Shown here one piece after another: positions 2 through 36,042 of a stretch of DNA of 43,142 nt (positions are counted from its first letter, which is position 1; the number at the start of each line of letters is the position of its first letter). The DNA lies in NCBI GenBank assembly GCA_001871815.1, contig MNVP01000075.1, forward strand, positions 1 through 43,142. Reading direction: 5' to 3'. Position numbers and translations under genes: made by a program. Source of the DNA: Candidatus Omnitrophica bacterium CG1_02_40_15 (GTDB lineage: Bacteria > Omnitrophota > Gorgyraeia > Gorgyraeales > Gorgyraeaceae). The notes beneath the pieces are model-generated. The model saw only the letters and a list, made by a program, of their open reading frames with translations, ran no database searches and had not been told where the DNA came from.

Positions 2-841
2 CAAGGGATAGATTTAAAAGGCCTGGAGATAATAGACAATAAAAAATCAAAAGATTTAGATAAATACGTAGAGCTATATTGTGAAAAGCGTAAGCACAAA
101 AAAGTCAGCCATGAAGATGCATTAAAAATAATCACAGGAAATCCTGTTTTTTACGCCAGCCTTATGGTTAGCGCCGGAGATGCAGATGGATCTGTGGCTG
201 GCGCTTCTATAACTACCCGCGATGTTGCAAAGGCGGCTATCTATTGTATAGGCCCTGCAGAGAATATAAAAACAGTTTCTAGCTCAACGCTTTTAATACT
301 GGGTGATAAGGCTCTCGGGTCTAGCGGTATCTTTATATATGCTGATGCAGGCATCGTGCCTGATCCAACTGCAGACGAGCTGGTAGATATTACAATATCG
401 AGCGCAAGGATGGCAAAGATACTACTGGATGACCAGCCAAAGATTGCGATGTTAAGTTATTCAACTAAAGGCAGCGGCGGCTCTGGTAAAAGTATACAGA
501 AAGTCCAGGAAGCTACAAGGATTGTAAGAGAGAGAGAGCCAGACTTACTTATAGACGGAGAAATACAGGTCGATTGCGCAGTAGTGCCGGAAGTAGCTCA
601 GAGAAAAGACCCTGATTCCAGAATTAAAGGCAGAGCAAATATTTTTATATTCCCGAATTTAGATGCTGGGAATATTTCGTATAAATTAACTCAGCGCCTC
701 GCAAGAGCGCGCGCTATCGGGCCGCTTCTTCAAGGCCTTCAAAAACCAGCCAGCGACCTATCGCGCGGCTGTGATTTTCAGGATATTATAGATGCAGTTG
801 CGATAACAGCTGTCAGGGCACAGGGCGAGGACATTCAGTAG
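2..841 (+). CDS. pta: phosphate acetyltransferase, C-terminal part (5' end outside window)
   Basis: Frame is open from nt 2 (QGIDLKGLEIIDNKKSKDLDKYVELY...). Pta motifs SLMVSAGDADGSVAGA, IAMLSYSTKGSG, FIFPNLDAGNISYKL are present and ackA lies directly downstream. The TAG stop lies inside palindrome A1. Confidence 0.85.
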   Translation, partial: QGIDLKGLEIIDNKKSKDLDKYVELYCEKRKHKKVSHEDALKIITGNPVFYASLMVSAGDADGSVAGASITTRDVAKAAIYCIGPAENIKTVSSSTLLILGDKALGSSGIFIYADAGIVPDPTADELVDITISSARMAKILLDDQPKIAMLSYSTKGSGGSGKSIQKVQEATRIVREREPDLLIDGEIQVDCAVVPEVAQRKDPDSRIKGRANIFIFPNLDAGNISYKLTQRLARARAIGPLLQGLQKPASDLSRGCDFQDIIDAVAITAVRAQGEDIQ

Positions 842-866
842 GGACAGAACATTGTTCTGTCCCTAC
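838..866. repeat. Family A 29-nt palindrome, copy A1
   Basis: GTAGGGACAGAACATTGTTCTGTCCCTAC: 14-nt arms around one central base. It contains the pta stop codon. Confidence 0.9.
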
Positions 867-883
867 AATAACCGACATATCTA

Positions 884-1930
884 ATGTTAATCCTTGTTTT
901 AAATAGCGGAAGCTCTTCAATAAAATATAAGCTTTTTGATGTGCAGGAGAAATCTGAAAAGCTTTTAGATAAAGGCCTTGTGGAAAGGATAGGAGAAAAG
1001 ATCCCGGGCCATAAAGAGGCAATTAACTTTATATTAAATAAAATAGGGACTAAAATAGATGCTGTGGGCCACAGGGTTGTGCATGGAGGCGATAGATTTA
1101 GTAAATCTGTTCTGATAGAAGATAATGTTATAAAGGCAATAGAGGATTTTACTGAACTGGCGCCGCTGCATAATCCACCAAGCCTATTGACAATAAATGA
1201 ATCGAGAAAAATACTCTCAGGCATCCCTCATGTGGCTGTATTTGATACAGCTTTTTATTATAACATGCCTGAGTATGCGTATTTTTATGCGATTCCCTAT
1301 AAGTTTTATGAAAAGTATAAGATTCGTAAATATGGTTTTCATGGAACCAGCCATAGGTATGTATCTGAACAGGCAGGATGTCTTTTAAAGAAGCCTTTAA
1401 ATGAACTTAGGCTTATCACATGCCATCTTGGGAATGGGTGCAGCATAACTGCTGTAAAAAATGGCAAGGCAATTGATACAAGCATGGGTTTTACTCCTCT
1501 GGAAGGCCTTGTGATGGGTACGCGTTCAGGCGATCTGGACCCGGCGATCATACCTTACATAATGGAAAAAGAAAATATAGATGTAAATGCAGTTATGGAT
1601 ATTCTAAATAAAAAAAGCGGGCTTTTAGGTGTTTCCGGGTTAACTAATGACATGCGCGAACTGATGAAAGAAAAAAGCGCAAATAAAAAAGCAAAATTGG
1701 CGTTGGATATTTTTATTTACAGGATAAAAAAATATATAGGCGCTTATATGGGCGTAATGTCAGGATGCGATGCGGTGATTTTCACAGGGGGCATAGGAGA
1801 GAATAACCCTGCTCTTATTGAGGAAATCTGTAAAGGCGTTGTTTCAAAAAAGACGAAGATCCTGGTGATCCCTACGGACGAAGAATTAATGATTGCTCGC
1901 GACACCTATAAAATCGCGCATTTATTATGA
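884..1930 (+). CDS. ackA: acetate kinase (compact, 348 aa)
   Basis: MLILVLNSGSSSIKYKLFD N-terminus, AVGHRVVHGG, FDTAFYYNMP, YGFHGTSHRY, GFTPLEGLVMGTRSGDLDP, PTDEELMIARDT. Confidence 0.9.
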   Translation: MLILVLNSGSSSIKYKLFDVQEKSEKLLDKGLVERIGEKIPGHKEAINFILNKIGTKIDAVGHRVVHGGDRFSKSVLIEDNVIKAIEDFTELAPLHNPPSLLTINESRKILSGIPHVAVFDTAFYYNMPEYAYFYAIPYKFYEKYKIRKYGFHGTSHRYVSEQAGCLLKKPLNELRLITCHLGNGCSITAVKNGKAIDTSMGFTPLEGLVMGTRSGDLDPAIIPYIMEKENIDVNAVMDILNKKSGLLGVSGLTNDMRELMKEKSANKKAKLALDIFIYRIKKYIGAYMGVMSGCDAVIFTGGIGENNPALIEEICKGVVSKKTKILVIPTDEELMIARDTYKIAHLL

Positions 1931-2364
1931 AGATATATGTTGATAAGATACCAGAAGGCGGGCTAGAACTATCCGAAAAGATCCAACCGGAAGCGTTTTT
2001 AATAAACATGGAAGGTATAAGTTTTATTAAACCTATAAATGTAAAGGCGGATGTTTCAAAGATCGGCGCCGAGATTTTTGTGGATGTTGTGTTGGAAACG
2101 CATGTAGAATACACATGCGGGAGGTGCCTTAGCAAATTTGAAGATATTTTTAGAAAAAAGTTTAACATGGCACAGGAGGTCAGGCCTGCGGAAGTAGTGG
2201 AACTGGACGATGAAATAAGGCAGGAGATAATACTAGATTGTCCTGTGAAAATTATTTGTAAAGCTGAATGCAAAGGGCTTTGCCCTAATTGCGGGCAGAA
2301 TCTAAATACAGGAGAATGCGGTTGCGAACATAATGGGCCGATTGAGAATCGGCCTCTACATTAA
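1927..2364 (+). CDS. yceD: YceD/DUF177 family protein
   Basis: Cysteine pairs CGRCL ... CPNCGQNL, in the conserved position just upstream of rpmF. ATGA overlap with the ackA stop. Confidence 0.75.
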   Translation: MKIYVDKIPEGGLELSEKIQPEAFLINMEGISFIKPINVKADVSKIGAEIFVDVVLETHVEYTCGRCLSKFEDIFRKKFNMAQEVRPAEVVELDDEIRQEIILDCPVKIICKAECKGLCPNCGQNLNTGECGCEHNGPIENRPLH

Positions 2365-2450
2365 ATTTAGCTTCGTCCCGCCCTTTTTGGACGGGTTACT
2401 AAGAAGACTCGCCAAAAGAGCGGGGCTTCGCAAAAATTGGGAGGTTTTAA

Positions 2451-2651
2451 ATGGCTTTACCAAAAAGAAGGCATTCAAGTTCAAGGCAGGGTAAAAGAAG
2501 AGGTTCTCAGAAAGTTCATATGCAGAGCACGTCTATTTGCCCTAATTGCAAATCACCCAAACTGCCTCACCGCGTATGCAGCGTATGCGGCTATTACAAA
2601 GGCAGGCAGGTGATACAGATTAAAGAGAAGAAAAAAGAAGAGAAAAAGTAG
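2451..2651 (+). CDS. rpmF: 50S ribosomal protein L32
   Basis: MALPKRRHSSSRQGKRR plus zinc ribbon CPNC...CSVCGYYKGRQV. Confidence 0.95.
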   Translation: MALPKRRHSSSRQGKRRGSQKVHMQSTSICPNCKSPKLPHRVCSVCGYYKGRQVIQIKEKKKEEKK

Positions 2652-2686
2652 TTAAAAGTTTAAGGTTTTAAGTTAAAGGTTAAAGA
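2652..2686. repeat. Family G heptamer array, copy G1 (single arm)
   Basis: Five tandem 7-mers TTAAAAG TTTAAGG TTTTAAG TTAAAGG TTAAAGA fill the rpmF-plsX gap exactly. TAA occurs in all three frames. Confidence 0.8.
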
Positions 2687-2687
2687 G

Positions 2688-3689
2688 ATGATCAAAATAG
2701 CGCTAGACGCCATGGGTTCTGACAATGCCCCGTTTTCAGACGTAGAGGGAGCTGTTTTAGCAGCTCGTGAATTTAGTTACGAGATTACATTGGTGGGAAA
2801 TCAGGATTTAATAAAAAAAGAGCTCGAAAAATACAAACCTATCCCTTCCAATATATCAATACATCATGCCTCTGAAGTCATTGGGATGCATGAGCAGCCT
2901 GTTTTAAGCGTAAGAAGAAAAAAAGATTCGTCTATAGTCAGCCTGTCTAATCTTGCAAAAGAGAAAAAGGCAGATGCTATAGTAAGCGCTGGTAACACCG
3001 GCGCAATGGTATGCGCTGCAACGCTTAAATGCAAGCTTCTCAGCGGGATAGAAAGAGCTGGGATAGGCATTATTATGCCTACTCTTAAAGGGCCTATGGT
3101 AATGATAGACGGAGGCGCAAATATAGACGCTAAACCATCTCATCTTTTACAGTATGGTATCATGGCAAGCGCTTATTCAGAGTATATATTTAATAAAAAA
3201 TCTCCAAAAGTCGGGCTTTTAAATGTAGGCGAAGAAGAATCAAAAGGCACAGGTTTTTTAAAAGAGGCTTACAGCCTTCTTGAGTCTTCAGGGCTTAATT
3301 TTATAGGTAATGTAGAAGGAAGAGATTTTTTTGTTGGCGATTGCGATGTAATAGTCTGTGATGGGCTTGTGGGCAATGTAGCTTTAAAGGTTACTGAAGC
3401 AGTTGTTTATGCGTTTGAAGAAATGCTTAAGAAAGAATTAAAGAGCAGATTCTTATCTTTAGTAGGGTCTATGCTGGCTAAGAATGCTTTTATATCAATG
3501 AAGAAAAAAATGGATTATGCTGAGTATGGCGGGGCTCCGCTTCTCGGGGTTAATGGCGTTTGTATAATAGGGCATGGTTCATCAAATCCCAAGGCAATAA
3601 AAAACGCTATTCGAGTTGCAGGAGAAGAGGTAGTTAAAAACATAAACCAGCATATTATAGAAACAATTGCTATTAGGAGGGAGCGATGA
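2688..3689 (+). CDS. plsX: phosphate acyltransferase PlsX
   Basis: MIKIALDAMGSDNAP, SAGNTGA, GGANIDAKP, NVGEEESKG, LLGVNGVCIIGHGSS. Confidence 0.9.
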   Translation: MIKIALDAMGSDNAPFSDVEGAVLAAREFSYEITLVGNQDLIKKELEKYKPIPSNISIHHASEVIGMHEQPVLSVRRKKDSSIVSLSNLAKEKKADAIVSAGNTGAMVCAATLKCKLLSGIERAGIGIIMPTLKGPMVMIDGGANIDAKPSHLLQYGIMASAYSEYIFNKKSPKVGLLNVGEEESKGTGFLKEAYSLLESSGLNFIGNVEGRDFFVGDCDVIVCDGLVGNVALKVTEAVVYAFEEMLKKELKSRFLSLVGSMLAKNAFISMKKKMDYAEYGGAPLLGVNGVCIIGHGSSNPKAIKNAIRVAGEEVVKNINQHIIETIAIRRER

Positions 3690-4666
3690 TGGAACAGGCT
3701 GGCATACTTGGATTAGGTTGTTATCTACCAGTCATGAAGCTGACAAATAAAGACATGGAGAAGATGGTCGATACATCAGATGAATGGATAATGACAAGGA
3801 CTGGGATCAAGGAAAGAAGGATTGCTCCAAAGGAATTTGCTGCGAGCGACCTTGGAGTGGAGGCTGCCAGAGCTGCCATTAAAGACTCAGGGTTAAAGCC
3901 TGAAGATATAGATTTGATTATTGTTGCTACAGTAACGGGCGATATGGCATTTCCATCTACCTCATGTATTATACAGGATAAGATAGGCGCTCGTAACTCA
4001 GCCGCATTTGATATAAATGCGGCGTGTTCAGGTTTTATATTCGGTATAATTACTGCGAAACAATTTGTTGATTCAGGGTTTTATAAAAATGTGCTGGTTA
4101 TAGGCGCAGAAAAGATGACCAATCTTGTTGACTGGCAAGATCGGTCTACGTGCGTATTGTTCGGAGACGGAGCAGGCGCATGCGTTGTAGGAAAGAGTAA
4201 AGATAGGCGGATTATCTCTTATTTTATAGGCTGCGATGGTTCAGGCAGTAATCTTTTAAGGCTTCCAGCAGGGGGCTCCAGGATTCCTACAACAGAAGAG
4301 ACTGTTAAGGCTAAGCTTCATTTTTTAAAAATGGAAGGCAACGAGGTATTTAAAATCGCGGTAAAGGTAATGGCAGATGCTGCGAATAAGGCAATTACAA
4401 AAGCAGGGCTTTTATGTAGCGACATAGATTTATTGATACCGCATCAGGCAAATATAAGGATATTAATGGCTGTTGCAAAAAAGATGGGCTTGCCGGAAGA
4501 AAAGATTTTTCTTAATATAGAAAAATACGGCAATATGTCATCGGCTTCAACAGCTGTTGCGCTGGCAGAGGCAGATAAAGAACATAAGATTAAAAAAGGC
4601 GATAATGTCGCGCTTGTTGCGTTTGGAGCAGGATTGACTTACGGGGCTGTTGTGATTAAGTGGTAA
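3686..4666 (+). CDS. fabH: 3-oxoacyl-ACP synthase III
   Basis: TSDEWIMTRTGIKERRIA, active-site AACSGF, HQANIRI, GNMSSAS. ATGA overlap with plsX. Confidence 0.9.
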   Translation: MMEQAGILGLGCYLPVMKLTNKDMEKMVDTSDEWIMTRTGIKERRIAPKEFAASDLGVEAARAAIKDSGLKPEDIDLIIVATVTGDMAFPSTSCIIQDKIGARNSAAFDINAACSGFIFGIITAKQFVDSGFYKNVLVIGAEKMTNLVDWQDRSTCVLFGDGAGACVVGKSKDRRIISYFIGCDGSGSNLLRLPAGGSRIPTTEETVKAKLHFLKMEGNEVFKIAVKVMADAANKAITKAGLLCSDIDLLIPHQANIRILMAVAKKMGLPEEKIFLNIEKYGNMSSASTAVALAEADKEHKIKKGDNVALVAFGAGLTYGAVVIKW

Positions 4667-4672
4667 AGGATG

Positions 4673-4761
4673 GTTCTCGACTGGGCGTGCATGCATAGCC
4701 AGTATGTCCACTCGAACAATATTTATATTCTTCGAGCGAGGCCGAAGGCCGAGTCGAGAAG
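4673..4761. repeat. Family B TCGA-rich composite element, copy B1
   Basis: GTTCTCGACTGGGCG ... CTCGAACAATATTTATATTCTTCGAGCG ... AGTCGAGAAG as nested inverted repeats. Fills the fabH-fabD gap. Confidence 0.85.
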
Positions 4762-4770
4762 GAAATAATT

Positions 4771-5715
4771 ATGAATAAAATATGTTTTATTTTTCCATGC
4801 CAGGGATCGCAGTATGTGGGAATGGGGAAAAAGCTGTATGATAATTCTCCGGAAGCAAAAACTATATTTGACCAAGTAGAAAAAAATTTACCGGGATTAG
4901 ATCTAAAGAAACTTTGTTTTGAAGGCCCGATAGAAAAATTGACACAGACGGCAAACAGCCAAGTCGCGATACTTGTTACGAGCATCGCAGCTTTGCGGAT
5001 ATTAGAGACTGTAGGGACAGCACAATGGGCTGTCCCTACAGTGAAGGCGGGGCTAGTATGCTGCGCAGGGTTGAGTCTTGGGGAATATAGTGCGCTGGTT
5101 GCAAGCGGCGCATTGGAATTTTTAGACGCTGTAAGATTAGTTAGGCGAAGAGGGGAATTAATGGAACAAGCGGCTTTGAATAATCCAGGAACTATGGCGT
5201 CTATACTTGGGATTTCCGCAGAAGATCTGAAAGAAATTTGTAAAGAGACAGGGGCCGAAATAGCAAATCTAAATTGTCCGGGACAAATAGTTATATCAGG
5301 TAAAATTGAATCTGTCCAAAAAGCCATGGCCCTAGCTGAGCAAAAAGGCGCTAAAAAGGCAATTATATTAAATGTAAGCGGGCCTTTTCATTCATCATTT
5401 ATGAAAGAAGCTGCAAAGGAGTTTAAAAAAGAGCTTGGTAAAACAAAATTTTCCAGCCCCATGGTACCTATTGTAAGTAACGTTACAGCTGATTACGAAA
5501 AAACAGTTGATGAGATAAAAGAAAATCTTGTAAAACAATTATACAGCCCTGTGAGATGGGAAGAGTCTATACTAAAAATCAGCCAGGAAGGCTGCGATAC
5601 GTTTTTTGAGATAGGGCCCGGAAAGGTGCTTAAAGGATTATTGCGCAGGATAAATCCGGAATTAAAGGTTTATAATATAGAAACTGTGGAGGATATAAAT
5701 AATCTAACTTTGTAA
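4771..5715 (+). CDS. fabD: malonyl-CoA:ACP transacylase
   Basis: FIFPCQGSQYVGMG, nucleophile elbow GLSLGEYSAL, NCPGQIVISG, SGPFHSSFM, VRWEES. Carries in-frame palindrome A2. Confidence 0.9.
   Translation: MNKICFIFPCQGSQYVGMGKKLYDNSPEAKTIFDQVEKNLPGLDLKKLCFEGPIEKLTQTANSQVAILVTSIAALRILETVGTAQWAVPTVKAGLVCCAGLSLGEYSALVASGALEFLDAVRLVRRRGELMEQAALNNPGTMASILGISAEDLKEICKETGAEIANLNCPGQIVISGKIESVQKAMALAEQKGAKKAIILNVSGPFHSSFMKEAAKEFKKELGKTKFSSPMVPIVSNVTADYEKTVDEIKENLVKQLYSPVRWEESILKISQEGCDTFFEIGPGKVLKGLLRRINPELKVYNIETVEDINNLTL
5011..5039. repeat. Family A palindrome, copy A2 (inside fabD, in frame)
   Basis: GTAGGGACAGCACAATGGGCTGTCCCTAC, translated as VGTAQWAVPT. GTA is codon 81 of fabD. Confidence 0.9.
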
Positions 5716-5722
5716 AAGAATA

Positions 5723-5837
5723 GTTCTCGACTGGGCGCGTATGTATAGCCATAATGTCCGCTCGAACAATATTAGAAGCATCCAATATTCTTCGAGTGAT
5801 AATGATAACATATCATGAAAGCAAAGTCGAGAAGAAC
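5723..5837. repeat. Family B composite element, copy B2
   Basis: Roughly 85 percent identical by eye to B5 over about 110 nt: GTTCTCGACTGGG...TATAGCC...CGCTCGAACAATATTAGAA...CCAATATTCTTCGAG...CATATCATGAAAGCA.AGTCGAGAAG. Confidence 0.9.
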
Positions 5838-5854
5838 TGTAAAGGGGAAATATT

Positions 5855-6604: not shown

Positions 6605-6617
6605 AAATAAAAAGTTA

Positions 6618-6681
6618 GTTAAAAGTGAAAGGTGAAAAGTTAAAGATTTTTACCTTATACTTTAAACTTTACACCTTTAAC
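6618..6681. repeat. Family G heptamer hairpin, copy G2
   Basis: 5' arm GTTAAAA GTGAAAG GTGAAAA GTTAAAG, short loop, then a 3' arm of complementary 7-mers (..ACTTTAA ACTTTAC ACCTTTAAC). Imperfect pairing, about 21 of 28. Confidence 0.7.
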
Positions 6682-6709
6682 CAACATTTATACCAAGGAG
6701 GAATTAGAC

Positions 6710-6949
6710 ATGGCAGTTGCTGAGAAAGTGAAATCAATAATAGCAGAACAGCTTGGCGTGAAGCAGGAAGAGGTGACTCCGGAAGCGTCTTTTATAGACG
6801 ATCTTGGCGCAGATTCTCTTGATACGGTAGAGCTTGTAATGGCGCTTGAAGAAGAATTTGCTATAGAGATTCCTGATGAAGATGCTGAAAAGATCACTAC
6901 TGTAGGCGACGCTATTAAGTATATAGAAGAAAAGGGCACAAAAAAGTAA
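6710..6949 (+). CDS. acpP: acyl carrier protein
   Basis: [19 protein letters not shown] phosphopantetheine-attachment motif. AAGGAGG RBS upstream. Confidence 0.95.
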
Positions 6950-6964
6950 TATTTTGGATACATA

Positions 6965-7019: not shown

Positions 7020-7024
7020 AATGA

Positions 7025-7075
7025 GCCCCTACCGTTTTGATTCGCTTTGCGAATGCAAAACGAATCAGTAGGGGC
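7025..7075. repeat. Family C 51-nt hairpin, copy C1
   Basis: GCCCCTAC CGTTTTGATTCGC TTT GCGAATGCAAAACG AATCA GTAGGGGC. Its reverse complement is 49/51 identical to C2. Confidence 0.9.
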
Positions 7076-7138
7076 GAATTAATCCCGCCCTTTTAGCAAT
7101 TTTTCTCAGCTTGTTATTCAAAAGGGCGGGATAACTTC
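7076..7138. repeat. Family D hairpin, copy D1
   Basis: GAATTAATCCCGCCCTTTT-(25-nt loop AGCAATTTTTCTCAGCTTGTTATTC)-AAAAGGGCGGGATAACTTCGG. Matches D2. Confidence 0.85.
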
Positions 7139-7179
7139 GGCCAAATAAGTTACGTCGTTTCACTCCGTAACTTATGGCC
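7139..7179. repeat. Family E hairpin, copy E1
   Basis: GGCC AAATAAGTTACG TCGTTTCACTC CGTAACTTAT GGCC. Same stem as E2, and the loop motif TCGTTTCACTC is shared with E3 and F2. Confidence 0.85.
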
Positions 7180-7185
7180 TCACTT

Positions 7186-14573: not shown

Positions 14574-14586
14574 TAGGATACTATAC

Positions 14587-14684
14587 TGTTCGAGCGGACA
14601 GGGTGACTAATTGACAAAGCCCAGTCGAGAACTTCTCGACTGAGCTTACATTTTATGCCAGCTATGTCCGCTCGAAGAATATTT
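14587..14684. repeat. Family B element, copy B3 (head-to-head dimer of half elements)
   Basis: TGTTCGAGCGGACA...GCCCAGTCGAGAAC | TTCTCGACTGAGC...ATGTCCGCTCGAAGAATATT. The left half is an inverted copy of the B 5' module. Confidence 0.8.
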
Positions 14685-20201: not shown

Positions 20202-20468
20202 TTGGAAAAGGTATATTTGATAAAAGACTTGGCGAGAATGAGCGGGCAGACAGTTTATACGCTTAAATATTATCTGAATATAGGGCTTATTAAAGAAGTC
20301 GGTAGAAGTCCTGAGACTAGTTTTAGGTATTTTGATGATAGCACTATTGAGAGATTGAAAAAAATACGGGAATTAAGACGGGAGAATAAATCTATAGCTG
20401 AAATAAAAGAATTGTTGGAGTTCTCGACTCCCCGCCAAAGAACCGTTGGCGGATCGCTCGAACAATAA
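20202..20468 (+). CDS. short MerR-family HTH protein
   Basis: YLIKDLARMSGQTVYTLKYYLNIGLI plus RYFDDSTIERLKKIRELR. No effector domain. TTG 20202 start is inferred. The last 16 codons (EFSTPRQRTVGGSLEQ) are encoded by repeat B4. Confidence 0.65.
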   Translation: MEKVYLIKDLARMSGQTVYTLKYYLNIGLIKEVGRSPETSFRYFDDSTIERLKKIRELRRENKSIAEIKELLEFSTPRQRTVGGSLEQ

Positions 20469-20507
20469 CCGTTATTCTTCGAGCGAACCTCTCGACTTCG
20501 CTCGGGG
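20420..20507. repeat. Family B composite element, copy B4
   Basis: GTTCTCGACTCCCCGCCAAAGAACCGTTGGCGGATCGCTCGAACAATAACCGTTATTCTTCGAGCGAACCTCTCGACTTCGCTCGGGG. Confidence 0.85.
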
Positions 20508-25122: not shown

Positions 25123-25127
25123 AAGTC

Positions 25128-25191
25128 CGAACTTATCCCGCCCTTTTAGCGATTGTTTCAGCTTGCTATTCAAAAGGGCGGGATTAATTCG
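25128..25191. repeat. Family D hairpin, copy D2
   Basis: CGAACTTATCCCGCCCTTTT-(loop AGCGATTGTTTCAGCTTGCTATTC)-AAAAGGGCGGGATTAATTCG. Confidence 0.85.
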
Positions 25192-25195
25192 CACA

Positions 25196-27367: not shown

Positions 27368-27478
27368 TTCTCGACTGGGTGCGCATGTATAGCCACGCCT
27401 GCCGCTCGAACAATATTAGAAATATCCAATATTCTTCGAGCGATCATAATAGCATATCATGAAAGCACAGTCGAGAAG
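27367..27478. repeat. Family B composite element, copy B5
   Basis: Begins in the etfB stop codon. It is the near-twin of B2. Confidence 0.9.
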
Positions 27479-27492: not shown

Positions 27493-28698
27493 ATGTCAAT
27501 CAAAGTCATCAATGAAAAATGCGTTGGTTGTAAATTATGCGTCAAGGCCTGCCCATTCAACGCAATAGAGCTTGTTAATAAAAAAGCAGTCATAGACCTT
27601 GATAAGTGCACATTATGCGGGGCGTGTATAGAATCCTGCAAGTTTGACGCTATCGTGATTGTAGGGGGCGGTCGCGACCGCCCCCTACACCAGAAATTTG
27701 ATGAATATAAAGATGTGTGGGTATTCTGCGAACAGAAAAAAGGCGTTGTGCAGAGTGTTGCATATGAACTTTTGGGCAAGGCTAGAGAGCTCGCGGATAC
27801 ACTTGGGAATGAATTATGCGGAGTTTTATTAGGCGAAGATATGAAAGAGGAAGCGCAGAAGATTATTCATAGAGGCGCTAACAAGGTATATCTTGTGGAT
27901 TCCCCTGCGTTAAAACATTATCAGGATGAGCCATATTCAAAGGTGTTAATTCAATTGATAAAGGAGTATAAGCCTGAAATAGTGCTTTGCGGAGCTTCTT
28001 CAATAGGCAGGTCATTGATATCGCGGGTTGCAATAGGCATTCATGCGGGCCTTACAGCAGATTGCACAGGCCTTGATATAGATAAAAAAGAAAGGCTCCT
28101 ATTGCAAACCAGGCCTGCATTCGGCGGAAATATTATGGCCACTATTATCTGCCCTAATCACAGGCCTCAGATGTCAACTGTAAGGCACAAGGTAATGAAA
28201 GAAGCTGCCGAAAATAAACATCATAAAGGAAAGATCATAGAAAAAAATTACGGCAGTAATATTTATTTTTCGAGAACAAGGCTTATTGATATTGTGGAAG
28301 AGATAGAAGAGACAGTCAATTTAACAGAGGCAAACGTGATTGTTTCCGGCGGAAGGGGCATGCAGTCCCCAGAGAATTTTAAACTTATTGAAGGCCTGGC
28401 AAAGGCTCTGGGCGGCGCTGTAGGAGCATCGCGCGCCGCAGTTGACAGCGGCTGGAAAACTTATTCGCACCAGGTTGGCCAGACAGGAAAAACAGTGTGC
28501 CCGAAGATTTACATAGCCTGCGGCATCTCCGGCCAGATCCAGCATCTTGTGGGCATGCAGTCTTCAAAGATAATAGTGGCGATAAATAAAGACCCTTACG
28601 CGCCCATATTCAGCGTGGCGACCTATGGGATAGTTGGGGATTTATTTGAAGTATTGCCTGAATTGACGAGAAGATTTAAAGAAATATTGAAAAAATAG
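27493..28698 (+). CDS. etfA: electron transfer flavoprotein alpha subunit with N-terminal 2x[4Fe-4S] ferredoxin domain
   Basis: CVGCKLCVKACP and CTLCGACIESCK motifs, then VSGGRGM, GASRAAVDSGW, QVGQTGKTVCPKIYIACGISGQIQH. Confidence 0.9.
   Translation: MSIKVINEKCVGCKLCVKACPFNAIELVNKKAVIDLDKCTLCGACIESCKFDAIVIVGGGRDRPLHQKFDEYKDVWVFCEQKKGVVQSVAYELLGKARELADTLGNELCGVLLGEDMKEEAQKIIHRGANKVYLVDSPALKHYQDEPYSKVLIQLIKEYKPEIVLCGASSIGRSLISRVAIGIHAGLTADCTGLDIDKKERLLLQTRPAFGGNIMATIICPNHRPQMSTVRHKVMKEAAENKHHKGKIIEKNYGSNIYFSRTRLIDIVEEIEETVNLTEANVIVSGGRGMQSPENFKLIEGLAKALGGAVGASRAAVDSGWKTYSHQVGQTGKTVCPKIYIACGISGQIQHLVGMQSSKIIVAINKDPYAPIFSVATYGIVGDLFEVLPELTRRFKEILKK
27661..27688. repeat. Family A-like perfect 28-nt palindrome, copy A6 (inside etfA, in frame)
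   Basis: GTAGGGGGCGGTCGCGACCGCCCCCTAC, translated as VGGGRDRPL, in the linker between the ferredoxin and Etf domains. Confidence 0.85.
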
Positions 28699-28736: not shown

Positions 28737-29093
28737 ATGGCTTACACATTTAAGAATATAAAAGTTTGGGATAAAGCTCATAAGTTAGTTTTGGAAATAT
28801 ATAAAGCGACAAGAAATTTCCCAACGGAAGAAAAATATGGTTTGATAGCGCAACTTAGGAGATCGGCAGCTCCTATACCTACGAATATAGTAGAAGGTTA
28901 TAAAAGAAAAAGTGATAAAGATTTTTTACATTTTCTTAATATAGCCGATACATCTTTAGAAGAAACAAAATATCATTTACTTTTGAGTTACGATTTGAAT
29001 TATTTGAAAAAGAATGAATATGAAAGATTATTAGATTTAATGGACGAAGTTGGAAAGATGCTTTTTGGCTTCCAACAAAAGCTTAAAGCTTAA
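28737..29093 (+). CDS. four-helix-bundle protein (23S rRNA intervening-sequence protein / Avd-like family)
   Basis: KAHKLVLEIYKATRNFPTEEKYGLIAQLRRSAAPIPTNIVEGYKR...FLHFLNIADTSLEETKYHLLLS, recognised as the TIGR02436-type family. Confidence 0.8.
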   Translation: MAYTFKNIKVWDKAHKLVLEIYKATRNFPTEEKYGLIAQLRRSAAPIPTNIVEGYKRKSDKDFLHFLNIADTSLEETKYHLLLSYDLNYLKKNEYERLLDLMDEVGKMLFGFQQKLKA

Positions 29094-29111
29094 AGCTTAT
29101 AACTTAAAGCT
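29080..29111. repeat. Family G heptamer arm, copy G4b (3' arm)
   Basis: AGCTTAA AGCTTAA AGCTTAT AACTTAA AGCT. Complementary to G4a at 27 of 32 positions. Contains the stop of the four-helix-bundle gene and ends 7 nt before the smc ATG. Confidence 0.8.
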
Positions 29112-29118
29112 GAAAAAC

Positions 29119-32100
29119 ATGTATTTCAAATCCTTAGAATTATTCGGTTTCAAATCATTCGCTGATAAGACAAGGTTGGATTTTGAGCCTGGCATTACTG
29201 CTATTGTGGGGCCCAATGGCTGCGGAAAATCTAATATTGCCGACAGCATAAAGTGGGTACTCGGAGAACAATCTGCAAAGGTCTTGCGCGGCGGCAAAAT
29301 GGAAGACGTTATATTCAACGGCACTGACGGCAAGGAACCTGTGAGTTTCGCGGAAGTTTCCCTCACGCTTTCCAATCAGGATAGGGCGCTTGCAATAGAA
29401 TACGACGAAGTTACTGTCACCAGGCGCCTCTATCGCTCAGGAGAGAGCGAGTATCTTTTAAATAAAACTCCGGTCCGGCTTAAGGATATAAATGAGCTTT
29501 TCATGGGCACTGGCATAGGCACAAGCGCTTATTCTATTATTGAACAGGGCAAGATAGACCAGGTCTTGAGCTCGAAGCCAGAGGAAAGGCGTGAGGTCTT
29601 TGAAGAGGCGAGCGGCATTACAAAATACAAGGCAAAAAAGAAAGAGGCATTGCATAAACTGGAAGATACAGAACAAAATCTATTAAGGATAAATGATATC
29701 ATAGTAGAAGTAAAGCGCCAGATCAATTCAATAGAACGCCAGGCGAAGAAGGCAGAGCGCTATAAAGAGCGCTACGAAGAATTGAAGTCAATTGAATTGA
29801 AGCTCTCGAGAATAGACCTTGAGATATTGAGAAGCAAGAACTTGAATTCCGAAAGGGATACAAGCGAGTTAAATCAGAAAGAAGCAGAGCTTAATTTAGA
29901 ATTAAATAGCTTGTCCGAGGACCTGTCATTATTAAACAAGGATAGCTCCCATGTGGAAAATAAAAGAGTGAACCTGAAATCCAGAATAGTAGAACTTAAT
30001 TCTGAAATCTCAAAAGCCAGCAATAAGATATCTATGGATAAAGAAAGGGTGGACGAGCTTACAAAGCGCCGCTCAGGCCTTGAGGCTGAGATAAAAAAAA
30101 GCGAAGACATACTTATATCTCAAGAAAAGGAGATAGCTAATCTCAAGGAAAAGATATCTACGCTGGAAAAGGAAGATAGCGCGAGGTTCAGCAAGGTAAC
30201 AGAAAAAGAAAAAAGATTCGAAGAGATATCAAAGGCAATAAAAACAAGCGAAACAACATTGTCCAATTCGAAGGCAAATATCATAGATATTGCTTCAAGA
30301 CAGGCGAAGCTGAGAAACCAGGTGGCGAAGATATCCACTACTATTTCAACCCACGACTCAAGGCTCAAGAGGCTGGAATCAGAAAAATCAACTGTCTTAG
30401 AGGAAAAAAATAACCTGCAAGCTAAATTAAACGAAATCCTGGCAGAAATAACAGCAATTGAAAAAGAAGCAGCCAGCCTTAAACTAGAAAGAGATTCTGT
30501 ATCTGGTTCCGTATCAGCTATCCGAAGCCATATAAACTCGCTTACAGAAGAATCCAAAAAAATAGAGGCGCTCCTGGCGTCCAATAAATCCAAATTAGAA
30601 TTTTTGGAAGAGGCAAGGCTTAAATACGAAGGGTTTTCCGCAGGCGTAAAGGCAATACTTGGAAGCCAGTCAAGGATAGACGGCGTCAGGGATTGCCTTG
30701 CAAATCTGTTAACAGTCAAAAAAGGCTATGAGGCTGCAATAGAAACAGCAATGTCTGAGTATCTGCAAAGCATAGTAGTTGATACTATGGAATCTGTGGA
30801 TAATGCTATAGCATATCTTAAAGAACATTCATACGGCAAGGCCTCATTTATATATCCAGGGTATTTTAACGTAGGGACAGCACAATGTGCTGTCCCTACC
30901 GAGCAGATGGCGGTTTCCGAAGTCGAAAATTATAACGACAGCCGCATCCTTGGCAAGGCAGCTGATTTTGTAAATGCAGGAGATTCTTATAAAAATATCT
31001 TGAGGTATATATTGAAAGATGTTTTTATAGTAAATGACCTTAAGGACGCAAGGGCTCTTTTGGATAATACCAAGGGGCCTGCGAGGTGCAGGTTTATTAC
31101 TTTGTCAGGTGAGGCGGCCGAGAATGGGTTCATAACAGGCGGGAGCTCTAAAAAGGAAGAGCTTGGCCTGATAAATAGAGACGCCAGGATAAATGAGATC
31201 CGTCAAATGGTTAGTGAACTGGAAGGCCATTCGCGAAAACTTGAAGAAGAAAGGTTAGAGAAAGAAAAAGAAGAGAACGAATTGAAAACTAAATTTGAAG
31301 CGCTTACAAACGTAATTAACGAAAAAGATATACTATTTGCTAATGCCTCTACCAGCAGATCCAATATAGAAGAAAATATGAAAGGCCTGGGGGATGAGAT
31401 ATCGCTTGTGAACCTTGAGATAGATGAAGTGAATTCTGAAATCCTGATTCTGAAACAGGAAGAAGATGCTTCTCTTAAGACGCTGTTAGAGCTTGAGAAT
31501 GAAACCAAGATTAATGAAGAAAGGATACGCAGCAGCGAAGCCCTTATAACAGAATGCGCAAAAGAAAGAGAACAGCTTCTTGTAGAGATCGCGGAGGCAA
31601 GGACCGAGCTGGGGTCGCTCGAAAGCAAAAAGGAAGGCCTGTCGAGCACGTTGAATATACTGGAATCATCTTTGCGTGATGCCAGAAATAACGTAGAGTC
31701 CAGAAAGCTGGAAATAACGAGCTCTATTAAAAAGGGAGATGCGCTAATCGTAGAGATAAAAGAATTTGAAAAAAACATAACTGTCCTGTCGGAAGAAGGT
31801 TCCGGGAGGAATAAAGAATTGAGCGAGGTAGAGGCCGTATATTCCGAGATAACAGAAAAAACAGCGTCTTACGAAACTAAATCCAAAGAGATAGAAAACC
31901 AGATAAATAGTATAAGGTCAAAGATGCATTCTGTGGACTTACAGAAGGCGGAGGTGAATTACAGCATAGAAAACCTGACTCAACGCATAAGGGATGTTTA
32001 CAAAACTGAGCTTTTGGAATTCGAGCTGCCAGAGGATTGGCAGGTTTTAGATAAAGCTGCCCTGAAAAATAATGTAGAGGAAATGCGCAATCACTTGGAT

Positions 32101-32745
32101 TCAATGGGCGCGGTAAATCTGGTAGCTATAGATGAGAATAAAGAGCTTCAGGATAGGTTTATATTTTTGACAACCCAGAGAGATGACTTATTAAAGGCAA
32201 AAGACAGCCTGCTGGAGGCAATTAATAAAATAAATAAAACAACAAAAGAGCTCTTTATGGAGACATTCAAGAATATTCAAGTGGAATTCAGGAACTTCTT
32301 CAAAATGCTTTTCGGAGGAGGAGATGGGGAACTCATGCTCCTGGATGATGACAATGTGCTTGAGTGCGGGATTGAAATAGTCGCGAGGCCTCCCGGGAAA
32401 AGGCTTCAAAATGTTTCGCTTCTTTCAGGGGGAGAAAAAGCCCTTACCGCAGTAGCTCTTATATTCGCAATATTTAAAGTAAAGCCAAGCCCATTCTGTG
32501 TTCTGGATGAAATAGACGCGCCTCTTGACGAATCAAATGTTGACAGATTTTCAAGAAGCCTCGATATGTTTACAAATACATCTCAATTCATTGTTGTAAC
32601 CCACAATAAAAAGACCATTGATAAGGCTGATGTGATGTATGGCATTACCATGCAGCAGTCTGGCGTATCAAAGGTCGTCTCAGTCAAATTTTCAGATTCA
32701 AAGAAACAGGAAGCGGTTGAACAGCAAGTGGAGCCGAAGGTTTAA
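29119..32745 (+). CDS. smc: chromosome partition protein SMC
   Basis: MYFKSLELFGFKSFADKT, Walker A GPNGCGKSN, long coiled coils, hinge, LSGGEKALTAVALIFA, Walker B FCVLDEIDAPLD. Start ATG 29119. Carries in-frame palindrome A3 in the hinge region. Confidence 0.9.
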   Translation: MYFKSLELFGFKSFADKTRLDFEPGITAIVGPNGCGKSNIADSIKWVLGEQSAKVLRGGKMEDVIFNGTDGKEPVSFAEVSLTLSNQDRALAIEYDEVTVTRRLYRSGESEYLLNKTPVRLKDINELFMGTGIGTSAYSIIEQGKIDQVLSSKPEERREVFEEASGITKYKAKKKEALHKLEDTEQNLLRINDIIVEVKRQINSIERQAKKAERYKERYEELKSIELKLSRIDLEILRSKNLNSERDTSELNQKEAELNLELNSLSEDLSLLNKDSSHVENKRVNLKSRIVELNSEISKASNKISMDKERVDELTKRRSGLEAEIKKSEDILISQEKEIANLKEKISTLEKEDSARFSKVTEKEKRFEEISKAIKTSETTLSNSKANIIDIASRQAKLRNQVAKISTTISTHDSRLKRLESEKSTVLEEKNNLQAKLNEILAEITAIEKEAASLKLERDSVSGSVSAIRSHINSLTEESKKIEALLASNKSKLEFLEEARLKYEGFSAGVKAILGSQSRIDGVRDCLANLLTVKKGYEAAIETAMSEYLQSIVVDTMESVDNAIAYLKEHSYGKASFIYPGYFNVGTAQCAVPTEQMAVSEVENYNDSRILGKAADFVNAGDSYKNILRYILKDVFIVNDLKDARALLDNTKGPARCRFITLSGEAAENGFITGGSSKKEELGLINRDARINEIRQMVSELEGHSRKLEEERLEKEKEENELKTKFEALTNVINEKDILFANASTSRSNIEENMKGLGDEISLVNLEIDEVNSEILILKQEEDASLKTLLELENETKINEERIRSSEALITECAKEREQLLVEIAEARTELGSLESKKEGLSSTLNILESSLRDARNNVESRKLEITSSIKKGDALIVEIKEFEKNITVLSEEGSGRNKELSEVEAVYSEITEKTASYETKSKEIENQINSIRSKMHSVDLQKAEVNYSIENLTQRIRDVYKTELLEFELPEDWQVLDKAALKNNVEEMRNHLDSMGAVNLVAIDENKELQDRFIFLTTQRDDLLKAKDSLLEAINKINKTTKELFMETFKNIQVEFRNFFKMLFGGGDGELMLLDDDNVLECGIEIVARPPGKRLQNVSLLSGGEKALTAVALIFAIFKVKPSPFCVLDEIDAPLDESNVDRFSRSLDMFTNTSQFIVVTHNKKTIDKADVMYGITMQQSGVSKVVSVKFSDSKKQEAVEQQVEPKV
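30871..30899. repeat. Family A palindrome, copy A3 (inside smc, in frame)
   Basis: GTAGGGACAGCACAATGTGCTGTCCCTAC, translated as VGTAQCAVPT. GTA is codon 585 counted from ATG 29119. Confidence 0.9.
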
Positions 32746-33887
32746 GCGCAGATTTTATTTTTGCCTGATCTTTTGGCTTCGTAGAGCGCCCTATCAGCAC
32801 GGGTTATCAAATCCTCTTTTTTTTCTCCGTCTTCAGGAAAAGATGAGACGCCTATACTTATAGTTATATTTTTAAGGCTAGGGCTTGTTTCAACAGCCTT
32901 TCTTATGCGTTCAGCCAGGATAAGCGCTTCTTCTTTTTTTGTTACAGGAAGGATTATCCCAAATTCTTCTCCGCCGTAACGCGCTACAACATCTATTTTT
33001 CTTGATGCATCCTTGAATATCTTTGAGATTTCCCTGATAATACTGTCGCCTGCCTGATGGCCATAGGTGTCATTGAAGGCCTTAAAGTTATCTATGTCAA
33101 TCATAAGAAGCGTAAAACAAAATTTCATAAGAGAAGACTTCTTTATCTCTTCTCCCAATAGGTACTGAAAATATCCGTGATTCCATAATCCTGTAAGAGA
33201 ATCAGAATTTGAAAGGACCACAGTCTGTTCATAAAGCCTGGAGTTTTCAATTGCGAGGCCTGCCTGGTTTGCGAACATAGTCAATACCCTGACAGCGTCA
33301 TTAGTTATAGGTTTTTTGTTAAACCTATTATCCGCGAGCAGGACGCCTATTACCTTATCCTTTGCTTTTAAAGGCACTGTCACAAATTCGTCCAGATCCA
33401 GGATGATGGAAAATTCATTTTTCACTTTTTGTTTTGCTTCCGGCGTATTGATTATAAAAGGCAGGCCTTCCATGACTGTGAGCGCGATTACTCCCGAATC
33501 TTCTCTGACAGGAATTTTTATTGATTTTATCGCCTGATTGAGCCTGGATTTTTTGAGATGGTCAAATTGGGTTTCTATACTTATCAGTTCCTCGAGCCCG
33601 ATTTTATTTTTCTCTATATAAGCCCAGATTTTAGAAGCGTCTTCTGCGCTGTCAGGGCCTATGCCCATCTTGCCTTCCAGCTGGTTTTCTTTTTTATTTA
33701 CAAGGAAAAGCATGGCTCTATTAAAACTCAGGCCTGTATGGGACGTGGCGGCTGTAAGTATGATATAGAGGATTTCCTCCAGATTGAGGGTGGTGCGCAT
33801 GGCATTGCCTATATCATAAAGCATTTCCAGCTCAGTCCTTGTCTTGCTTAATTTTTCCTGGTAATTTTTATCTCCCATGTTATCCAT
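32742..33887 (-). CDS. GAF-domain diguanylate cyclase (GGDEF)
   Basis: GAF-like N-terminal region. RYGGEEFGII active site with an RKID I-site 5 residues upstream. First ATG is at 33887; an in-frame TTG at 33896 is also possible. Confidence 0.85.
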   Translation of the reverse strand: MDNMGDKNYQEKLSKTRTELEMLYDIGNAMRTTLNLEEILYIILTAATSHTGLSFNRAMLFLVNKKENQLEGKMGIGPDSAEDASKIWAYIEKNKIGLEELISIETQFDHLKKSRLNQAIKSIKIPVREDSGVIALTVMEGLPFIINTPEAKQKVKNEFSIILDLDEFVTVPLKAKDKVIGVLLADNRFNKKPITNDAVRVLTMFANQAGLAIENSRLYEQTVVLSNSDSLTGLWNHGYFQYLLGEEIKKSSLMKFCFTLLMIDIDNFKAFNDTYGHQAGDSIIREISKIFKDASRKIDVVARYGGEEFGIILPVTKKEEALILAERIRKAVETSPSLKNITISIGVSSFPEDGEKKEDLITRADRALYEAKRSGKNKICA

Positions 33888-33937
33888 ATTTTGCAATTAT
33901 ACCATATATATCTAATTATGCAAAAGGTAAATAAGGG

Positions 33938-33965
33938 TTGACAGGAAAGTATAAGTTGATATAAT
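33938..33965 (+). promoter_or_regulatory. sigma70-type promoter of the riboflavin operon
   Basis: TTGACA (33938-33943), 16 nt, TATAAT (33960-33965), just upstream of the riboswitch. Confidence 0.6.
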
Positions 33966-33971
33966 ACATAT

Positions 33972-34088
33972 GATCTTCGGGAGAGGGTGAAATTCCCCAC
34001 CGGTAGTATAGTCTACGAGCTTTGCTATAGCAGGGCAGATCCGGTGTAATTCCGGAACCGATTGTGAAAGGCTAGATGGTAGAAGAGT
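33972..34088 (+). promoter_or_regulatory. FMN riboswitch (RFN element) aptamer
   Basis: TCTTCGGGAGAGGGTGAAATTCCCCACCGGTAGTATAGTCTACGAGC...CAGATCCGGTGTAATTCCGGAACCGATTGTGAAAGGCTAGATGGTAGAAGAG matches the conserved RFN cores and sits upstream of ribBA. Confidence 0.85.
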
Positions 34089-34113
34089 TTTTATATATTC
34101 TGCATATTTTCAT

Positions 34114-34139
34114 GCCCGAAGACTTTCTTCGGGCTTTTT
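34114..34139 (+). terminator. riboswitch expression-platform terminator
   Basis: GCCCGAAG-ACTTT-CTTCGGGC followed by TTTTT. Its 5' arm can alternatively pair with the aptamer P1 strand TCTTCGGG (antiterminator logic). Confidence 0.8.
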
Positions 34140-34144
34140 AATGA

Positions 34145-34189
34145 GCACATCGTTTACGAATTTTTTTGAAATTCGTAAACGATAAGTGC
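34145..34189. repeat. Family C-architecture hairpin, copy C4
   Basis: ATGA|GCAC ATCGTTTACGAATTT-TTTTG-AAATTCGTAAACGAT AA GTGC|GAATTAATCC. The flanks match C1 but the interior stem is different. Confidence 0.7.
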
Positions 34190-34301
34190 GAATTAATCCT
34201 GAAGACACGACATTGCTGGTGCGACGAATAAGGAGCACCGTTTAGCAAACCTGCCGAGATGTGAGGCAGGTGGAGTGTCTTTAGGATATCGAGACCATAT
34301 C

Positions 34302-35495
34302 ATGAAATTCAATACAATACCTGAAATTATTAAGGATCTGAGAAAAGGCAAGATGGTCATTGTTGTGGATGACGAAGATCGCGAGAACGAGGGAGACCTT
34401 GTTATTGCAGCCAGTTTTGCTGCGCCTTCAGCGATTAATTTCATAATAAAGTATGCCAGGGGGCTTGTGTGTATGCCCATGGAAGGCGAAAGGCTTGATG
34501 AACTTGGGCTGCATCCAATGTTTGAGGACAATCAGGATACTTTTAAGACTGCATGGGCTATCTCTGTGGACGCTAAAAAAAGGACAACTACAGGTATATC
34601 CGCTCATGATCGCTCAGTTACTATAAAGGACCTTATAAATCCTAGTACAAAACCCGATGATCTTGCAAGGCCTGGCCATGTATTTCCTTTGCGGGCAAAA
34701 GATGGCGGAGTTTTAACGCGAGCGGGCCATACAGAGGCATGCGTTGATTTGATGAAGCTGGCAGGATTGTATCCGGCAGGGGTTATATGCGAGATAATAA
34801 ATGATGATGGCACTATGGCCAGGCAGAAAGACCTGGTAAAATTTTCAAAAAAATATAAACTTAAAATATGCACGATCGCCAGTTTAATTAATTACAGGCG
34901 GAAATCAGAGAGGCTTGTGACTTGTATTGCCTCCAGCCAAATCCCTACAGATTACGGGATGTTTAAATTATATCTTTATGAATCAAGTATTGATAAATAT
35001 CAGCATATAGCGCTTGTAAAAGGCGATGTGAAAGGAAAAAGAGATGTTTTAGTGCGCGTACATTCAGAATGCCTTACAGGCGATATATTTGGCTCTAGAA
35101 GATGCGATTGCGGGGAACAGCTTCGTAAGACTATGAGGCTTATAGGAGAAAGGCCAAGAGGCGTTCTTTTATATATGAGGCAGGAAGGCCGCGGCATAGG
35201 GCTGGTGAATAAGATAAAGGCATATACGCTGCAGGATAAAGGCTTTGATACAGTAGAGGCAAATGAACAGCTTGGTTTTAAGCCGGATTTGAGAGATTAT
35301 GGCATAGGCGCTCAAATATTAGCAGACTTGGGGTTGAAGACAATCCAGCTTATTACAAATAATCCGCGCAAGATAGTGGGTTTATCAGGTTATGGACTGG
35401 AGGTGGTAAAAAGGGTTCCTATGGAAGTGCAGCCTAATAGCGCTAATAAGAGGTATCTGGAAACCAAAAAGAAAAAATTAGGGCATCTTATTTAA
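34302..35495 (+). CDS. ribBA: bifunctional DHBP synthase / GTP cyclohydrolase II
   Basis: [43 protein letters not shown]. Start ATG 34302 ([10 protein letters not shown]). Confidence 0.9.
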
Positions 35496-35496
35496 A

Positions 35497-35525
35497 GTAG
35501 GGCCAGCACATTGTGCTGGCCCTAC
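35497..35525. repeat. Family A palindrome, copy A4
   Basis: GTAGGGCCAGCACATTGTGCTGGCCCTAC, starting 2 nt after the ribBA stop. Confidence 0.9.
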
Positions 35526-35541
35526 AACAAGAGGGGGGCGT

Positions 35542-36006
35542 ATGTATAAAATAATTCAGGGGGAACTTATTGCAAAAGGCAGGAAATTTGGTATCATAGC
35601 ATCCAGATTCAATGACTTTATTACCAACAGGCTGCTGGAAGGATGCGTTGATGAACTTACAAGGCATGGCGCAAAAGATAGCGATATAGAAGTTGTCTGG
35701 GCTCCTGGCGCATTTGAGATACCTGTTCTCGCAAACCATATGGCAAAGAGCAAAAAATATGATTCAATAATATGCCTTGGCACTATAATAAAAGGAGCAA
35801 CGCCTCATTTTGATTATATCGCAAGCGAGGCATCGAAAGGCATTGCGAATGTTTCTTTAAATACAGGCGTGCCTTTGATATTCGGAATAATTACAGCTGA
35901 TTCAATAGAGCAGGCAATAGAAAGGGCAGGCACAAAACATGGCAACAAAGGCCGTGACGCAGCCCGCTCAGCTATTGAAATGGCTAATTTAATCAAGTAT
36001 ATCTAA
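35542..36006 (+). CDS. ribH: 6,7-dimethyl-8-ribityllumazine synthase
   Basis: [43 protein letters not shown]. Confidence 0.95.
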
Positions 36007-36013
36007 CCATGTA

Positions 36014-36042
36014 GTAGGGACAGGACAATGTCCTGTCCCTAC
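36014..36042. repeat. Family A palindrome, copy A5
   Basis: GTAGGGACAGGACAATGTCCTGTCCCTAC, between ribH and nusB. Confidence 0.9.

Follow-up and report, generated by a model that had tools for sequence, protein, structure and literature searches.

Double-foot repetitive extragenic palindromic sequences (REPs) start with GT[AG]G at the 5' end and finish with C[TC]AC at the 3' end, and are tied to subclass 2.4 of the TnpA_Y1 transposases, as set out by Quentin, Siguier, Chandler and Fichant (2018, BMC Genomics 19:475, PMC6006769). In that account, in-frame REPs inside tnpA_REP, between HuH and Y, are unique to subclass 2.4, and the subclass, frequent in Cyanobacteria and Bacteroidetes, has a scattered occurrence in other groups (PMC6006769). 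GTAG-tagged REPs carry an unpaired GTAG at one end, are enriched past stop codons and include in-frame intragenic copies, according to the corresponding description (Di Nocera 2013, PMC3733652). Here, six palindromes of 28–29 nt are analyzed in contig MNVP01000075.1 of Candidatus Omnitrophica bacterium CG1_02_40_15, whose 43,142 nucleotides are called the window below. They are very likely double-foot REPs, short non-autonomous DNA hairpins of the type of TnpA_Y1/REP-associated tyrosine transposase (RAYT) subclass 2.4, a RAYT-like HUH/Tyr endonuclease of single-stranded DNA.

The first-pass annotation of the window had compared the palindromes to REPs and to Rickettsia palindromic elements (RPEs), and had recognized no described family. 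The resemblance to REPs is borne out by the link to RAYT-like HUH/Tyr genes, but RPEs are a different, longer element. The kind itself has a description, as the double-foot REP of the account cited above (PMC6006769).

Six palindromes in the window

The window comes from a groundwater member of Candidatus Omnitrophota. Its G+C content is ~40%, and nearly all of its genes are on the + strand. The pattern GTAGGG-N14..20-CCCTAC has exactly six matches in the window, at the positions given by the first-pass annotation, versus none in 100 dinucleotide-preserving shuffles. A generic search for GT[AG]G...C[TC]AC palindromes returns the same six sites, and none in 200 shuffles. No further degenerate copies, with up to 2 arm mismatches, were found within the window. 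L190 and L191 are two independent assemblies of the strain of the window, and the REP copies are identical there.

The ends GTAG...CTAC are present in all six copies, as well as in 135 copies of related loci. GGG/CCC lies next to the foot, and each arm has 13–14 complementary positions. Five of the six copies are perfect palindromes (14+1+14 or 14+14). All six had been taken as palindromic, but the copy at 5011 has a single A.G mismatch at arm position 12 (TGGG in place of TGTG), which had been overlooked. The differences between copies come in pairs, just as first described: at 7/23, four copies have A:T and one has C:G, and at 11/19 the pair is A:T, C:G or G:C. The predicted DNA folds have stems of 12–13 bp, with energies from -11.7 to -15.4 kcal/mol. 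None of the six copies can be assigned to a strand.

Three copies are at or just after stop codons and three are inside open reading frames (ORFs), a division that stands as originally reported. The perfect 29-nt copy at 838..866 has the centre ACAGAACA-T-TGTTCTGT and a predicted DNA hairpin of -12.7 kcal/mol (z -7.5). The TAG of its GTAGGG head (839–841) is the stop codon of pta (ORF 164–841, PF01515), and ackA starts at 884. The copy at 35497..35525, between ribBA and ribH, is also 29 nt and perfect, with C:G at 7/23; it begins 1 nt past the ribBA stop (35493–35495), and ribH starts at 35542. The copy at 36014..36042, between ribH and nusB, is 29 nt and perfect with G:C at 11/19. It begins 7 nt past the ribH stop, and the start of nusB is at 36057. 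The three are thus 0–7 nt from the stop and within co-directional gene strings.

The other three copies are in frame, and each begins in codon phase 0. The 29-nt copy with the mismatch (5011..5039) is in fabD (4771–5715), where it is read as VGTAQWAVPT in a variable loop ahead of the active-site GxSxG elbow. The perfect 29-nt copy at 30871..30899 is in smc (29050–32745) and is read as VGTAQCAVPT in the SMC hinge region. The remaining copy (27661..27688) is a perfect palindrome of 28 nt with the core GGCGGTCGCGACCGCC, and belongs to another subfamily. It is in an etfA/carE-like gene (27493–28698) and is read as VGGGRDRPL in the linker joining the ferredoxin and ETF domains. The RAYT genes of loci L242 and L256 have similar cores embedded in them.

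The palindromes are not intrinsic terminators, as had been stated: the terminator scan gave no such signature for any of the six, and their flanks are without T-runs. A scan of the window with Rfam 15 gave no match at any palindrome, and matched only a flavin mononucleotide (FMN) riboswitch and a tRNA.

Three related Omnitrophota loci (L110–L112), with RibBA 90–92% identical to that of the window, lack a copy at all four sites that can be compared. At the site of 36014, the ribH stop of these relatives directly adjoins the nusB start (CTTTAATATG), and the window is ~49 nt longer, REP included. At the SMC site, L112 is without a copy and the window has a net gain of 9 residues (tblastn). At the EtfA site, L112 has unrelated sequence of similar length, so here the palindrome is a replacement of the linker (tblastn). 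Because relatives at ~90% protein identity are without all four, the copies of the window are recent, lineage-specific gains.

At the site of 35497, the three relatives carry other hairpins, which are unrelated to the REP. In L111, a different near-perfect palindrome, AAAGTTGACACTGTGACAATGTCAGAGTGTCAACTTT, is located directly past the ribBA stop (4700–4740, orthologous to ~35497 of the window). L110 and L112 have yet another hairpin at the ribBA-ribH junction. It seems that this junction attracts or retains hairpins of different families.

Spread of the 29-mer and its RAYT-like genes

Species-representative genomes were scanned with the pattern GTAGGGNCAGNACANTGTNCTGNCCCTAC, which has five free positions. 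Among the matches listed, at least 109 genome stretches, belonging to more than 15 phylum-level groups, contain the pattern. These hosts are Omnitrophota, several groups of Patescibacteria/candidate phyla radiation (CPR), Zixibacteria, Latescibacterota, Ignavibacteria, Bacteroidetes, Anaerolineae, Gammaproteobacteria, Terriglobales, Sericytochromatia, Planctomycetes and Dadabacteria, among others. Some matches are on megabase contigs and complete chromosomes of up to 2.7 Mb, such as those of Zixibacteria (L005) and Ignavibacteriota (L091). Several metagenome-assembled genomes (MAGs) have 3–9 separate contigs, each with copies. Purely vertical inheritance of REP and RAYT does not easily account for a 29-mer common to so many phyla.

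The at least 109 loci listed contain 135 double-foot palindromes, mostly of 29 nt. Their centres are diverse (ACAGAACA, ACAGCACA, ACAGGACA, ACAGGTTT, GGCGGGTT and others), and the arms always match each other. The central 8–10 bp are free to vary between subfamilies, and the ends are fixed. Within 30 nt past a stop codon lie 42 of the 135 copies, and in five the TAG of the foot is the stop itself. Some 30–38 copies are intragenic, and about a quarter of all are in frame inside genes. By codon phase, 24 intragenic copies are in phase 0 versus 6 in the others. About 10 of the 24 are in RAYT genes, however, and several others are duplicates within one gene. Since both inflate the bias, it is weaker than apparent, and no target-site rule is claimed. 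The flank logo shows no target-site duplication (TSD), insertion motif or longer conserved flank around the 28–29 nt element, only T at -1 (41%) and A at +1 (58%). One Omnitrophota ORF (L008, 2444–2634) carries three different double-foot variants, 72–90 nt apart and all in phase 0.

All ORFs of the fetched loci were screened for transposases with phmmer, using sequences of E. coli RayT and IS608 TnpA as seeds, which served as a lead only. Candidates were verified by Pfam, NCBIfam, a hidden Markov model of the family (family HMM) and the Protein Data Bank (PDB). Pfam assigns them to Y1_Tnp, and the best NCBIfam model is REP_Tyr_transpos (REP-associated tyrosine transposase). E. coli TnpA_REP (4ER8) is the only solved relative when the family profile is compared with PDB. 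In alignment A5, His74 and His76 of the HUH motif, the catalytic Tyr153 and the following Asn157 are invariant. Over 1,500 database entries belong to the family, and RayT is the name given to them by some sources.

Based on the family HMM, 11 of the 109 loci listed, all retrieved by the pattern alone, contain a RAYT-like gene. In genomes sharing the 29-mer, RAYT genes are flanked by the same REP in L098, L013, L035, L065, L009 and L106. Two Omnitrophota MAGs (L200 and L102) encode the RAYT family. In 80 further loci retrieved by protein similarity, a double-foot palindrome is embedded in 50 of 94 RAYT ORFs, between the HUH and Tyr motifs in most cases examined. The consensus of alignment A5 is IMPNHIHGIIII...VGTExCSVPT...YGLLSKIIKSFK.

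Relative to the G of GTAG, phase 0 accounts for 39 of the 54 embedded palindromes and phase 1 for 15; in the remaining phase the foot is read as the stop TAG, which closes it. The identical palindrome GTAGGGGCACGGCATGCCGTGCCCCTAC is read as VGARHAVPLQ in two RAYT genes and as RGTACRAPT in two others. One palindrome with two translations indicates that the DNA palindrome is conserved, not the peptide. Among the 26 palindromes flanking protein-retrieved RAYT genes, 17 are no more than 2 nt off the embedded copy, many of them within 150 nt. The arrangement is REPtron-like, with cognate specificity.

Some RAYT genes contain more than one unit. The RAYT gene of L106 (1064–1672) has two copies inside and a third just upstream. 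The Patescibacteria RAYT protein P0054 has five tandem VGTEQCI(A/V)AN units, followed by a full VGTEHCSVPT.

Symmetry, mechanism and alternative explanations

The first-pass annotation had proposed that self-complementarity is what is conserved, and the larger sample agrees. In 33 distinct 29-mers (440 pair cells), 98% of the cells are paired, and 11 of 14 pairs have changed on both sides. There are 93 double changes versus no one-sided (G.U-type) change, and no wobble pairs. Pairing collapses in every slid and shuffled control. At the free positions, 11/19 is complementary in all 119 copies (A:T 80, C:G 22, G:C 17) and 7/23 in 117. At the central base, the two strands are balanced (T 42, A 42, G 18, C 17).

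The symmetry extends through the centre. With the selection of palindromes restricted to the outer ten positions of each arm, the 28-mers are complementary at arm position 13 in 36 of 39 cases and at 14 likewise in 36 of 39, and the 29-mers are complementary at arm position 14 in 13 of 13. The predicted hairpins place these centre bases in a loop of 3–4 nt. Hairpin stability alone is therefore insufficient, because positions that cannot pair are complementary and wobble pairs are absent. The strict Watson–Crick symmetry, the centre included, is probably maintained by a DNA-level process alongside RAYT recognition. Quasi-palindrome template switching is a process that homogenizes arms, and such homogenization fits the data. 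A symmetric protein recognizing the duplex fits as well. A further option is origin by deletion within inverted REP dimers, which is suggested in the account of Quentin et al. (2018, PMC6006769). Centre symmetry and the absence of wobble pairs offer a testable handle on how the palindromes are maintained.

A mechanism can be proposed by analogy to E. coli TnpA_REP and IS200/IS605. The hairpin would form where DNA is single-stranded, as at replication forks. The RAYT would bind the stem, and the GTAG foot would position cleavage and rejoining, so that copies could be gained at new sites. As the foot is on both strands, the element is without orientation. Copies survive at places of low harm: just past stops in operons, or in in-frame surface loops and linkers. 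A host-level role, such as protection of mRNA 3' ends, is putative and would be secondary.

Several facts weigh against double-foot REPs moved by a RAYT. The family HMM finds no RAYT gene in the window or in the same-strain contigs L190 and L191. In a targeted scan, a RAYT gene carrying the C/G-type variant of the window is found only in L106 (Ca. Uhrbacteria), and in no Omnitrophota. The scores for REP_Tyr_transpos are 54–67 bits, under the curated cutoff of 80. The junctions are not clean 29-nt inserts (+49 nt at 36014, a same-length replacement in EtfA), and an insert of 29 nt alone cannot keep the reading frame. In the cited literature, the only enzyme characterized biochemically is E. coli TnpA_REP, which belongs to another subclass (PMC6006769).

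The palindromes could instead be RNA hairpins selected by the host, independent of any transposase, which protect mRNA 3' ends or serve as processing or decay points in operons. Three of the six window copies lie 0–7 nt past stops in co-directional gene strings, the 42 post-stop copies elsewhere follow the same tendency, and the unrelated hairpins of the relatives suggest that a hairpin is useful at the ribBA-ribH junction. Moreover, Di Nocera (2013, PMC3733652) argues in the cited work that many REPs act as RNA. However, selection on RNA does not sit well with 93 double changes and no G.U-type one-sided change in 440 pair cells, with complementarity at centre positions that cannot pair, or with about a quarter of copies being in frame inside genes. 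Nor would host-specific selection on RNA lead one to expect that the 29-mer recurs within RAYT genes and across more than 15 phyla. This explanation is unlikely, and a role as RNA would be at most secondary and exapted. The palindromes could also be operators, bound as duplexes by a dimeric regulator or another symmetric protein such as a restriction-modification control protein. Their perfect dyad symmetry, centre included, is what a symmetric dimer predicts, but the copies are past stops or in unrelated housekeeping coding regions rather than at promoters. An operator would not be expected to vary in its central 8–10 bp between subfamilies with fixed ends, to be missing from close relatives with the same genes, or to be specifically associated with RAYT genes. 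We regard it as very improbable.

Since all sources are metagenome assemblies, the copies might be assembly or sequencing errors, mis-binned contigs of one organism, or products of chance. Yet they come from different assemblers and studies, and the contigs that carry them, from different phyla, range up to complete chromosomes of 2.7 Mb. Shuffled sequences give none, L190 and L191 are identical at the copies, and the reading frames of conserved proteins are preserved. Independent assemblies and intact frames refute such an artefact, whose probability is practically negligible. Known classes of other kinds were also compared. The copies are not arrayed, which rules out CRISPR repeats; integron attC sites have a different consensus; SOS/NrdR-type operators would be in other positions; and miniature inverted-repeat transposable elements with terminal inverted repeats are ruled out by the lack of TSDs and by the short length.

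Within the reading as double-foot REPs, a bolder extension can be speculated, which we consider rather unlikely. The RAYT gene and its internal REP would form a self-contained unit moving between phyla, in which the internal copy has a function, whether in autoregulation or as a "master" copy, and is not just an insertion that is tolerated. Separately, the symmetry would come from DNA-level copying of one arm onto the other, by template switching or by RAYT-catalysed exchange of feet. Such a mobile unit, if real, would explain the near-identical 29-mer in more than 15 phylum-level groups. If the arm copying is true, the "compensatory substitutions" would be the trace of a mutational process rather than a sign of selection on structure.

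Other repeats, implications and comparison with known systems

The window contains a second palindromic family, with the half-site CGCTCGAA[C/G]AAT. Twelve half-sites (up to 1 mismatch) are present versus 0.26 expected, and the matches are at 4709–4738, 5759–5798, 14585–14680, 20455–20485, 27403–27442 and 36566–36635. They are mostly inverted pairs with a loop of 6–16 nt, in which arm position 9 has a conserved C.C mismatch. Every one lies between genes, ~40–60 nt upstream of the starts of + strand genes (fabD, etfA and others). The family is also seen in Omnitrophota loci L018 and L072, and has no Rfam match.

A perfect palindrome of 47 nt (38588–38634; 23+1+23, CCCAACAACTTGACAAATCAACA A TGTTGATTTGTCAAGTTGTTGGG) overlaps the 3' end of ribD (ORF 37493–38617) and ends shortly before the following rib gene (38648). 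Of the fetched loci, only the same-strain contigs L190 and L191 have it. An inverted-repeat element of ~70 nt, GCGAATTAATCCCGCCCTTTT-N25-AAAAGGGCGGGATAAsTTCGG, is present in opposite orientations at 7072–7142 (+) and 25125–25194 (-). Its arm is also seen in Omnitrophota locus L015. The element may be a terminator-like hairpin that works in both directions, or it may represent a further family of small repeats.

The FMN riboswitch (33969–34091, +; 94.8 bits) is upstream of the ribBA-ribH-nusB-...-ribD-ribE string. It is accompanied by a strong sigma-70-like promoter (33938–33965) and a terminator-like hairpin (34114–34134), and the latter is probably its expression platform. Between etfA and smc, 28737–29093 (+) encodes a four-helix-bundle protein of 118 aa, of the 23S_rRNA_IVP / bAvd-like family. 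The tRNA is at 41979–42052.

In FabD, SMC, EtfA and many other candidate-phylum proteins, short peptides such as VGTAQCAVPT, VGTEQCSVPT and VGGGRDRPL are insertions derived from the repeats, and not protein features that mark a lineage. This matters for annotation, as both alignments and gene calls can be led astray by them. The range of double-foot REPs and subclass 2.4 RAYTs is widened to Omnitrophota, Patescibacteria/CPR, Zixibacteria, Latescibacterota and other uncultured groups. These findings do not overturn current understanding; their general interest is modest, and their practical value is in annotating proteins of candidate phyla.

Among the known systems, RPEs share with the elements analyzed here a palindromic repeat, in-frame insertion into coding genes and an added peptide segment. 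RPE-1 is roughly 100–150 bp long and is not known outside Rickettsia. To our knowledge, it has no GTAG...CTAC double foot and no RAYT. In contrast, the elements here are 28–29 nt and have no sequence relationship to RPEs. RPE-4 and RPE-6 are placed in the CGTC class of REPs in the cited description (Di Nocera 2013, PMC3733652).

The ends of IS200/IS605 and of their miniature derivatives, the palindrome-associated transposable elements (PATEs), are similar in that a hairpin of single-stranded DNA is recognized by a Y1 HUH transposase and a tetranucleotide guides cleavage. There, two different subterminal hairpins, at the left end (LE) and the right end (RE), bracket a cargo, and the enzyme is TnpA_IS200 of subclass 1.1. 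Here, in contrast, there is a single hairpin of 28–29 nt without cargo, and the enzyme is of the RAYT type.

GTAG REPs and REPINs (hairpins of paired REPs) are closer. They too have a GTAG foot by a G:C-rich hairpin, a length of 20–40 nt, many dispersed copies with enrichment directly past stops, occasional in-frame intragenic copies, and a gene for an HUH/Tyr enzyme flanked by cognate copies. Such GTAG-tagged REPs and REPINs with RAYT were reportedly treated by Nunvar in 2010 and by Bertels and Rainey in 2011. Canonical REPs differ in that their GTAG is unpaired and confined to one end, and their stems are of 6–13 bp; they are oriented and often form inverted doublets (REPIN, or bacterial interspersed mosaic element, BIME). 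Each element here stands alone, is symmetric and has no orientation; its GTAG pairs with CTAC and is present on both strands, and an unpaired tag at one end only is not found. The RAYT is also of another subclass than that of canonical REPs, and under the NCBIfam RayT cutoff.

The double-foot REPs, as described by Quentin et al. (2018), resemble the elements most. Both have GT[AG]G/C[TC]AC ends, a long stem and three G:C pairs at the foot. In both, copies flank tnpA_REP, occur in frame inside it and are seen in unrelated genes, and both have a patchy phylogenetic distribution. The subfamily GTAGGGACAG-N-ACA-N-TGT-N-CTGTCCCTAC is matched to the REPs of that work by description. Unlike the hosts described there, those found here are Omnitrophota, Patescibacteria/CPR, Zixibacteria, Latescibacterota, Dadabacteria and others, with a near-identical 29-mer. 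Relative to that description, the host range in candidate phyla, the 29-mer common to different phyla, and the quantified centre symmetry with its absence of wobble pairs appear to be additions.

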